Assembly: GCF_000406145.1 (NCBI RefSeq)
Contig: NZ_CM001976.1
Coordinates: 2,831,337 to 2,863,336 of the forward strand
Direction: 5' to 3'
DNA from: Dickeya dadantii NCPPB 898
GTDB lineage: Bacteria; Pseudomonadota; Gammaproteobacteria; Enterobacterales; Enterobacteriaceae
Length of the DNA stretch: 32,000 nucleotides
Shown: piece by piece, positions 24,262 through 24,806 of the stretch
Layout of the letters: the number at the start of each line of letters is the position of its first letter
Position numbering within the stretch: the first letter of the stretch is position 1
Position numbers and translations under genes: made by a program
The notes under the pieces: model-generated
What the model was told of the DNA's origin: nothing
Databases searched by the model: none
Seen by the model: only the letters and a program-made list of their open reading frames with translations

Positions 24262-24294
24262 GAATCATCCTATTGAATAGGCAACCGAAAATTT

Positions 24295-24375
24295 TCATTT
24301 TTTGAACAGGCATATTTCCGTATATTCAAACAGAAAAGTCGCCAGCGTTATTGTTAAATTTGTCTTTATCTTCAC
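24295..24375 (-). pseudogene. Degenerate 5' remnant of the pilotin gene (26 codons) heading the T2SS operon
   Basis: The reverse strand reads gaagagaaaaatc GTG AAG ATA AAG ACA AAT TTA ACA, giving MKIKTNLTITLATFLFEYTEICLFKK then a stop. The intact gene reads MKIKTNLTVALALLLSGCTAKTSIQKKY. The SD and start are conserved but the lipobox is lost. Confidence 0.7.
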
Positions 24376-24806
24376 GATTTTTCTCTTCATTTCATTTTTT
24401 GAGATTTCTTTATCAGAATCATCTGTTGTGTAAAACAAAAACATAATTTTACTGAAGACATAGAATTTCACTGGAAAAAATAGAATTACACTACGTTTAT
24501 TGTTGATACTAGTAATACCTCACTAACTAAAAACGCTAAATTTTTCAAATTCACGGTTCAAACATTAAATTCATAAATAGGTTACACCTTTTCATGCTGA
24601 GTTTCATTCACGAATCATTGCACGTTAACCTACACATTTAACAGTGCTACCGCCCTTGGGATGTTTAACCCAAAAATGTATTTATTAAATCTTTTTGTCG
24701 AATTTCCTCTGAAATAAACTTACACTTGCTGACCTTGATTTACATGAGATTCGTCTTAATAAAATTTATGCTTTTGTTGCAGGTTTAATCGACACCGTTG
24801 CAAATA
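24376..24806 (-). repeat. Shared AT-rich 5' regulatory region, copy R3 (in front of the T2SS operon)
   Basis: Its reverse complement aligns over about 430 nt with R1 (9318-9637) and R2 (12090-12470). It is roughly 30% G+C by eye and probably carries the promoter(s). Confidence 0.8.

Follow-up and report, generated by a model that had tools for sequence, protein, structure and literature searches.

Why does the same AT-rich region lie in front of a type II secretion system (T2SS) operon and of two small gene cassettes in Dickeya dadantii NCPPB 898? The question arises in a stretch of 32,000 bp (hereafter the window; contig NZ_CM001976.1, positions 2,831,337 to 2,863,336), which is the Stt type II secretion island of D. 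dadantii. Stt secretes the pectin lyase homologue PnlH and has a patchy, horizontally transferred distribution (10.1101/568105; PMC9653667). The complete operon sttC-D-E-F-G-I-J-K-L-M, with the gene order gspC-M but without gspH, occupies 14930-24119 on the minus strand. The pilotin gene sttS lies at 12471-12854 (+) and is followed by a companion gene at 13061-13822 (+), the putative cargo gene of the original prediction. We call this cassette R2 and a related one at 9128-11093 R1. On balance we lean towards the view that a duplicated Rcs-dependent promoter of class-II type co-drives the machine and the pilotin/companion operons.

The original prediction, made from the letters of the window, held that the AT-rich 5′ region is present three times, and alignment bears this out. 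The copy upstream of sttC (Cup; 24285-24822 (-)) consists of blocks A to F and a fossil start of sttS, the R2 copy upstream of sttS spans 12074-12470 (+) with homology extending to 12560, and the R1 copy (9303-9637 (+)) has blocks A to E only. The region had been placed correctly and all shared strings listed for it were found, but its limits reach about 15-20 nt further distally, to ~24822, 9303 and 12074. With blastn, the reverse complement of the T2SS-upstream region matched R1 with 70.7 % identity over 348 nt (E 2e-52) and R2 with 61.4 % over 534 nt (E 1.6e-26); R1 and R2 matched each other in two stretches, of 259 nt (66 %) and of 283 nt (74 %). Local-alignment scores were compared with 300 dinucleotide-preserving shuffles and amounted to 129 vs 13.8 ± 1.8 (z 64), 71 vs 14.5 (z 30) and 70 vs 15.4 (z 23). 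Scores for two further AT-rich stretches in the window were 14-15, at the level of the shuffles, and the identity of the three copies is far above that of shuffled AT-rich sequence. The string GATTAANNCTGCAACAAAAG occurs exactly three times against 0.04 expected. The G+C content of the shared region is 28-34 %, compared with ~55 % in the flanks. Significant homology is thus present upstream of different operons, as in a paralogous regulatory region. A scan of a genome contig collection with GATTAANNCTGCAACAAAAG gave 69 chance matches and none from Dickeya; this collection may lack the region or have it masked. The pattern itself fits the D. dadantii sttS-upstream copies (R2 and R1 of the window and strain 3937) and not most copies of other species.

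Related loci were retrieved via protein look-ups, and we compared the Stt clusters of D. dianthicola (L072), D. dadantii subsp. dieffenbachiae (L074), D. dadantii strain 3937 (L076), Dickeya sp. ws52 (L080), D. chrysanthemi-like strains (L081, L086) and D. poaceiphila (L084, L085). Seven island lineages were counted (L072, L074, L076, L080/L081/L086, L085 and the window with the D. dadantii assembly L087). The shared region occurs twice in all seven, before sttC and, inverted, before sttS, so both copies have been retained, as expected of a duplicated regulatory region, across islands at no fewer than four chromosomal sites. The clusters adjoin an esterase gene, a glyoxalase gene, a second MatE gene or smpB, and often integrase, insertion sequence or defence genes. 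As both copies are found in every island examined, the sttC/sttS duplication is ancient, intrinsic to the island and older than the split of the island lineages. Over blocks A+B the identity is 59-77 % between paralogues and 58-97 % between orthologues (58-88 % without the two nearly identical D. dadantii sttS copies). No concerted evolution was seen between paralogues of the same genome, since copies within a genome are no more alike than copies from different genomes.

The direction of the copying can be read from the fossil before sttC. A Shine-Dalgarno (SD) sequence, a GTG and ~29 codons of sttS are recognisable at 24290-24375 (-) by their match to the sttS profile; with a profile built from eight sttS genes, nt 1-86 of sttS were matched in the fossil (E 5e-11), and no match followed further downstream. 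The corresponding open reading frame (ORF; 24295-24375 (-), GTG at 24375) has 26 codons and reads VKIKTNLTITLATFLFEYTEICLFKK before the stop, with FEY in place of the lipobox LSGC. The claim of a pilotin start with 26 codons, a stop and a lost lipobox therefore stands, while the homology was said to end there and in fact continues for a few bases beyond the stop. Since this fossil of an sttS start sits before sttC, the duplication apparently went from sttS to sttC. The R2 gene has the properties of PulS/OutS-family pilotins, namely a PF09691 domain (E 2e-45) and a lipoprotein signal with the lipobox LSGC; the fossil and the R1 copy of sttS fail on domain and lipobox and are pseudogenes. Between the fossil and sttC lies a segment of ~50 % G+C that is not common to the cassettes and includes the sttC SD (24120-24284 (-)). 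It was found in the lineages of the window, L074 and L076 only, its similarity to the rest of sttS was not above that of shuffles, and nhmmer found none. A complete pilotin gene may once have headed the operon, as outS precedes outB-outC, but only its start has left a trace before sttC. This segment also contains a perfect 17-bp tandem repeat, TACTCGAGTTGAACGTG twice, at 24189-24222 (-), which is present as two slightly diverged copies in L074 and as one in strain 3937, and which could be a regulator site or the result of replication slippage.

The part common to every copy is the distal ~100-210 nt, and blocks A+B (~210 nt) precede sttC in all lineages. In D. dianthicola a deletion joins block B straight to the sttC ATG and only A+B are left. 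In D. poaceiphila a deletion with another junction runs from the end of block C to the ATG and A+B+C are kept, and in L080 and L081 13 fossil codons remain. Because only A-B precede sttC in all lineages, any common promoter must lie there. ERIC-like (enterobacterial repetitive intergenic consensus) insertions are found at different places in the sttC-upstream copy of L074 (3513-3741) and L081 (~3395-3700), and the one in L074 creates an annotated 69-codon ORF that starts with the fossil.

Block A contains a palindrome, TAAGA-N4-TCTTA, which perfectly matches the RcsB homodimer box TN(G/A)GAN4TC(T/C)NA defined structurally and by electrophoretic mobility shift assay in Salmonella (PMC7913699). 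The consensus matches are TAAGACGAATCTCA at 24745-24758 (-) in Cup, TAAGATTAATCTCA at 12138-12151 (+) in R2 and TAAGAAAAATCTTA at 9366-9379 (+) in R1, and no other match occurs in the window. The 23 consensus matches in ~218 kb include all 17 copies of the region from eight genomes. An alignment of 16 copies shows no variation at any of the 8 specified positions, whereas only 21 % of the 126 aligned columns are invariant, and the five variable positions all fall on N positions (6/2002 = 0.003), so that the box takes the form T(A/G)AGA-N4-TCT(T/C)A. The strain 3937 sttC box TGAGACGAATCTTA agrees with the crystallised rprA site TGAGACGAATCTGA at 13/14 positions, the mismatch being on an N, and the R1 box agrees with the flhDC site TAGGAAAAATCTTA at 13/14 positions, with the mismatch on an R position.

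In every copy TGTA(A/G)NTT follows 20 nt after the box, which places a −10-like hexamer TA(A/G)(A/G)TT 22 nt after it. This spacing is the same in 16/16 copies and the extended motif is TTATTRAGANNANTCTYATG-N18-TGTARNTT. The candidate −10 elements are TAAGTT at 24717-24722 (-) in Cup, with TG directly upstream, and TAAATT at both 12174-12179 (+) in R2 and 9402-9407 (+) in R1; the predicted starts are 24710, 12186 and 9414, respectively. The strain 3937 equivalents, computed from its locus, are ~2889898 (-) and ~2877344 (+). A sigma-70 consensus scan gave no site upstream of sttC and no −35/−10 pair conserved across the copies, and the lack of a conserved −35 fits an activator-dependent promoter. 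The idea that machine and cassettes came to share a promoter/operator region by segmental duplication is thus the best reading of the shared region, given that all islands have both copies, that the distal part is retained and that the box is conserved with a fixed spacing to the −10; as shown below, R1 and R2 did not prove to be local duplicates of each other.

Other candidates did not hold up. By eye, no match was seen for KdgR, PecS, Fur, PhoP, SlyA, IHF, sigma-54, sigma-28, RpoE, HrpL or integron attC cores, CRP had a weak half-site only, and the DzrR site (CTCCAT repeats) is absent. In block A, the opposite-strand frame (LHEIRLNKIYAFVAGLI...) has no start codon and is frameshifted in both D. 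dianthicola copies, so the block is conserved at the DNA level. A small ORF there, MRFVLIKFMLLLQV, has its ATG in only two copies. Upstream of the box we noticed a conserved stretch, ATTTG(C/T)AAC-N5-CCGATTAAAYCTGCAACAAAAG, at 24763-24806 (-), 9318-9361 and 12090-12133. It holds two TGCAAC repeats 21-22 nt apart, fits no recognised motif, and might be an UP-like element, the site of a second factor or an H-NS nucleation site (cf. TCGATAAATT).

Taken together, we propose the following course. Early in the history of the island, the ~0.5 kb region upstream of sttS and the first ~30 sttS codons would have been copied, inverted, before sttC, and both copies would since have kept block A with its RcsB-type operator and a −10-like hexamer but no −35. 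The Rcs envelope-stress relay would act through its output, phosphorylated RcsB, which would bind the box in each copy and switch on three targets jointly: the sttC-M(-pnlH) operon, the operon of sttS and its companion, and the companion gene of R1. Secretin and pilotin would then appear simultaneously, and the secretin would never be made without its pilotin. Transcripts from ~24710 (-), 12186 (+) and 9414 (+) would carry long AU-rich leaders, and H-NS may well silence this 70 % A+T DNA, as the original prediction had already suggested from its base composition. In strain 3937, sttS and its companion gene form one validated transcription unit (TU 1242), and sttC-M plus pnlH form a second one; both have "low signal", no primary start was detected for them, and they are nearly silent in standard culture (PMC9239193 supplement). 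An sttE-uidA fusion is induced 3-fold by polymyxin in the wild type and in phoP and pmrA mutants, for which another peptide-sensing regulator was postulated (PMC3544676). Passages of PMC11709261 and PMC7418988, and of PMC10052836 citing Farris 2010, describe the Rcs relay as answering antimicrobial peptides. An Rcs-dependent promoter would fit this PhoP/PmrA-independent induction of sttE.

A wider and clearly more tentative interpretation, which we think has less chance of being right than of being wrong, is that the mobile T2SS island has been plugged into the host Rcs relay by carrying and duplicating an rprA-like RcsB-dependent promoter. Attack of cationic peptides on the outer membrane, in insects or in plants, would then trigger synchronous production of secretin, pilotin and a family of small Gly/Ala-rich secreted proteins, and the real role of Stt would be a response to envelope stress or antagonism and not the degradation of pectin. 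This suggestion is tied to the state of the genes in the window, where pnlH is a pseudogene and the machine and companion genes look intact.

Several observations weigh against activation by RcsB. The consensus is loose, with 1.3 matches expected per 32 kb and at least three in 14 of 100 shuffles, so the count of three boxes in the window is not significant by itself. The box was matched after roughly a dozen motifs of regulators had been screened by eye, the −10 hexamer is weak (TGATTT in the sttC-upstream copy of D. dianthicola), and the distance between box and hexamer is 1 nt off that in rprA (22 vs 23). In aphids, sttI is up and motility genes are strongly induced; as Rcs normally represses motility, this argues against strong Rcs activation there. 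A similar palindrome could serve other regulators of the NarL/FixJ type, the box of GacA having a TAAG-N6-CTTA core. The transcription start site (TSS) and small RNA data of strain 3937 list no start site for either region (PMC9239193). Finally, identity over A+B of the sttS-upstream copies (59-78 %) does not exceed the 60-88 % at sttS 4-fold sites, and the clustering of conserved columns was not significant by column permutation. These last three points, together with the decay of the fossil ORF, are what could be expected of a neutral relic, in which the copies are alike for lack of time, have no common regulatory function and leave the operons to other elements. We consider such a relic unlikely. 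Blocks A-B have outlasted several independent deletions and ERIC-like insertions before sttC, all specified positions of the box are invariant in the 16 copies while its spacer is free, and the spacing to the −10-like hexamer is constant. Moreover, identity of the region is only moderately above that of sttC 4-fold sites overall, but in several pairs of sttC-upstream copies it exceeds that of the sttC sites (e.g. 74 % vs 52 %). The region as a whole is not demonstrably constrained and we do not claim general phylogenetic footprints. Somewhat more weight, though still well short of our preferred explanation, goes to a shared promoter/operator that works without activation by RcsB, through another NarL/FixJ regulator (GacA/UvrY or a heterodimer partner of RcsB), through repression by RcsB or through dominant silencing by H-NS. 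The GacA box is TGTAAG-N6-CTTACA and has its core in common with the box found here, but the invariant flanks AT...TG disagree with its ends TG...CA, and there is no variation at A5 and T10, which the RcsB box requires and which in the GacA box would be free spacer positions. RcsB boxes near a −10 can repress, as at gadA (PMC2887963), and an antisense TTTACA-15-TAAAAT pair straddles the box in 9/12 copies; polymyxin nevertheless induces sttE and does not repress it. The low G+C content and the near silence of the stt units in culture would suit H-NS, and a passage of PMC3950696 describes activation of H-NS-repressed loci by BglJ-RcsB.

The remaining explanations give the shared region a role other than that of a promoter. 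A structured cis-regulatory RNA or small RNA, encoded on either strand, appears very unlikely. Of 12 copies, 9-10 can form a hairpin of the type TTTTGGG...CCCAAGR, whose loop measures 4-8 nt and whose stem shows one compensatory pair; G-U pairs lengthen the stem on the sense strand only. In Cup it reads TTTTTGGG-N8-CCCAAGGG in block B (24653-24676 (-)), ~+35 to +58 of the predicted transcript; the compensatory pair, GAG/CTC, occurs in L074, and the hairpin was flagged as terminator-like on the opposite strand. But R1, R2 and the sttS copy of D. poaceiphila show the hairpin weakly or not at all, blocks C-F are dispensable before sttC, and RNAalifold found no consensus structure in the 12 copies (-2 kcal/mol). 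Rfam has no match in the region, either at the gathering threshold or at E<=1, so neither a known family nor a conserved covarying structure is recognisable. Even less probable is that the copies are terminal inverted repeats by which a mobile element transposes or recombines. In favour of this, the copies stand in inverted orientation at either end of the stt cluster, whose chromosomal site varies, and the one on the sttC side is located where the conserved island has its edge. On the sttS side, in turn, homology between islands runs at least 190 nt past the repeat, so the repeats are not flush with the ends. The islands have tRNA-Val or smpB at their borders, along with integrase remnants, a cognate transposase is missing, and the repeat takes in a gene start. 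We also give hardly any credence to the proposal that the fossil ORF could act as a leader peptide or upstream ORF controlling translation of sttC. In the window, L074 and L081 this ORF retains an intact SD and GTG, and in L080 the GTG with a shortened SD stretch. Its length, however, is 26, 69 or 13 codons depending on the lineage, the GTG has changed to GAG in strain 3937, and the fossil has been deleted in D. dianthicola and D. poaceiphila, so neither start codon nor frame is conserved among relatives. In the window it stops 175 nt before sttC, which makes translational coupling impossible. The fossil is apparently a decaying by-product of the duplication and no conserved leader peptide, and ORFs of 26, 69 and 73 codons called in these regions of Dickeya genomes are repeat artefacts.

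The closest parallel to the proposed Rcs-dependent promoter is rprA of E. coli and Salmonella, whose box differs from the strain 3937 sttC box at one N position. In E. coli the rprA box lies at −49 to −36 relative to the annotated 5′ end of the RNA, just upstream of the −35 position, and its −10, TACTAT, is found 23 nt after the box and likewise comes without a good −35 element. Unlike rprA, the stt promoters are predicted only and sit on a horizontally mobile island in diverged paralogous copies, and they are followed by leaders of 115-590 nt and not by a small RNA. The RcsAB/RcsB box of P1flhDC, for which R1 has the 13/14 agreement given above, differs in position, being downstream of the start site, and in effect, which is repression. 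With respect to gene organisation, the Out and Pul systems (Dickeya outS, Klebsiella pulS) are like Stt in having a PulS/OutS-family pilotin which is encoded apart from gspC-M and must accompany the secretin. Co-regulation in Out and Pul has been attributed to separate operators for one regulator. Stt differs, as the whole ~0.5 kb upstream region together with the start of the pilotin gene has been copied before the machine operon. The order of the Out genes is outSBCD... (PMC9653667). In Stt, unlike Out and Pul, sttS is placed at the cluster's far end, convergent with it. The T2SS-beta of E. coli has its pilotin gene yghG directly upstream of gspC, an arrangement which the Stt fossil mimics, but YghG/AspS is an unrelated pilotin family and Stt keeps only ~29 decayed codons.

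Promoters of the RcsB class-II type and paralogous control regions are already known kinds. In the literature we searched, there was no description of an RcsB-type promoter in Stt, of the duplication with its fossil of a gene start, or of a link from either to the polymyxin response. RcsB acting at a defined 14-bp box would be a candidate for the polymyxin sensor of Stt, reported in 2013 as unidentified, and the predicted start sites concern two operons that are silent in the published transcription map of strain 3937. The locus may also serve as an example of regulon formation in which a whole control region, gene start included, is copied inside a mobile island, and such copying would answer the need for joint production of secretin and pilotin.

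The three copies had been ascribed to segmental duplication. Cassette R1, to judge from its collinearity with other islands, is what decay has left of a second Stt island, divergent at the 70-80 % level, and is not a local duplicate of R2. Positions 8384-11764 are an insertion relative to other D. dadantii strains. Its stretch 9128-11093 follows the order of other islands, from the sttS-upstream region through sttS and the companion gene to the pnlH 3′ end, with 73-82 % identity. The remnant is bordered on the left by a tRNA-Val(GAC) gene (8262-8338 (+)), and a second copy (11757-11833 (+)) lies between it and the Stt island; in strain 3937 the tRNA-Val copies flank a single island on both sides. 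A second island would have integrated in tandem at tRNA-Val and later shed its machine genes, leaving R1. The "two cassettes" would then reflect tandem accretion of islands at tRNA-Val, which is relevant to the annotation of Dickeya genomes. The sttS pseudogene of R1 (9617-9860 (+)) lacks ~150 nt at its 5′ end and has an in-frame stop and a frameshift. As had been predicted, a deletion removed the promoter-proximal end (~130 nt) and the pilotin start, although the loss amounts to the first ~50-57 codons and not ~60, and its junction is a 9-bp microhomology, AAAGCAGCA. The R1 companion gene is an apparently intact 265-aa ORF (10016-10813 (+)), 59 % identical to the R2 companion. It may have a promoter of its own too. 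In the strain 3937 map, position 2877959 within sttS is given as an internal start site that precedes the companion gene (PMC9239193). This site corresponds to ~12769 (+) of the window, and the sequence is kept in the R1 pilotin remnant at ~9759. The remnant also contains a C-terminal fragment of PnlH at 10983-11093, and its architecture between the tRNA-Val genes is 98 % conserved in L087. Just 3′ of the first tRNA-Val, a 91-aa ORF (8488-8763 (-)) matches the phage family phrog_21089 (E 5e-20), which would fit a prophage or island remnant at this site. An Rfam match at gathering level to the HPnc0260 antisense RNA (65.7 bits, 11795-11920 (-)) overlaps the 3′ half of the second tRNA-Val and the sequence downstream; it is probably tRNA-related and not a real member of that family.

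The companion protein of R2 has a signal peptide, a Gly/Ala/Trp-rich region and four conserved Cys, and belongs to a Dickeya-restricted family: homologues of the 282-aa ORF 3′ of the pilotin gene are confined to Dickeya, plus one in Symbiopectobacterium. Four Cys are invariant in this family and KMSPRP is found at the C-terminus. Searches of Pfam and NCBIfam gave no matching family, and the AlphaFold2 model, from an alignment of 15 sequences, was all-helical with a pLDDT (predicted local distance difference test) of 51, too poor for a fold search. The family is present as two tandem copies in D. dianthicola, while in D. poaceiphila sttS is followed by 3-4 tandem companion genes (four ORFs of 200-258 aa, with membership checked for the last only). 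A single copy lies in a Symbiopectobacterium prophage, where the T2SS is absent.

In the window pnlH, which encodes the sole known Stt substrate, is a pseudogene at 13992-14913 (-), between the pilotin gene and the operon. Its homology to PnlH of strain 3937 is spread over three reading frames, which implies two frameshifts. The cluster at 14930-24119 lacks gspH, gspN and a gene for prepilin peptidase; its GspC, in which no PDZ-type C-terminal domain was detected, has a length of only 162 aa. Look-ups with the exact proteins of the window gave no match. The flanks are 97 % identical to D. dadantii chromosomes and the inside of the island 88-92 %, and SttJ is closest (95 %) to that of D. dianthicola; this drop in identity and the affinity of SttJ suggest that the island is mosaic and recombining. 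The assembly L087 is 98.2 % identical to the window over 18 kb, both cassettes included.

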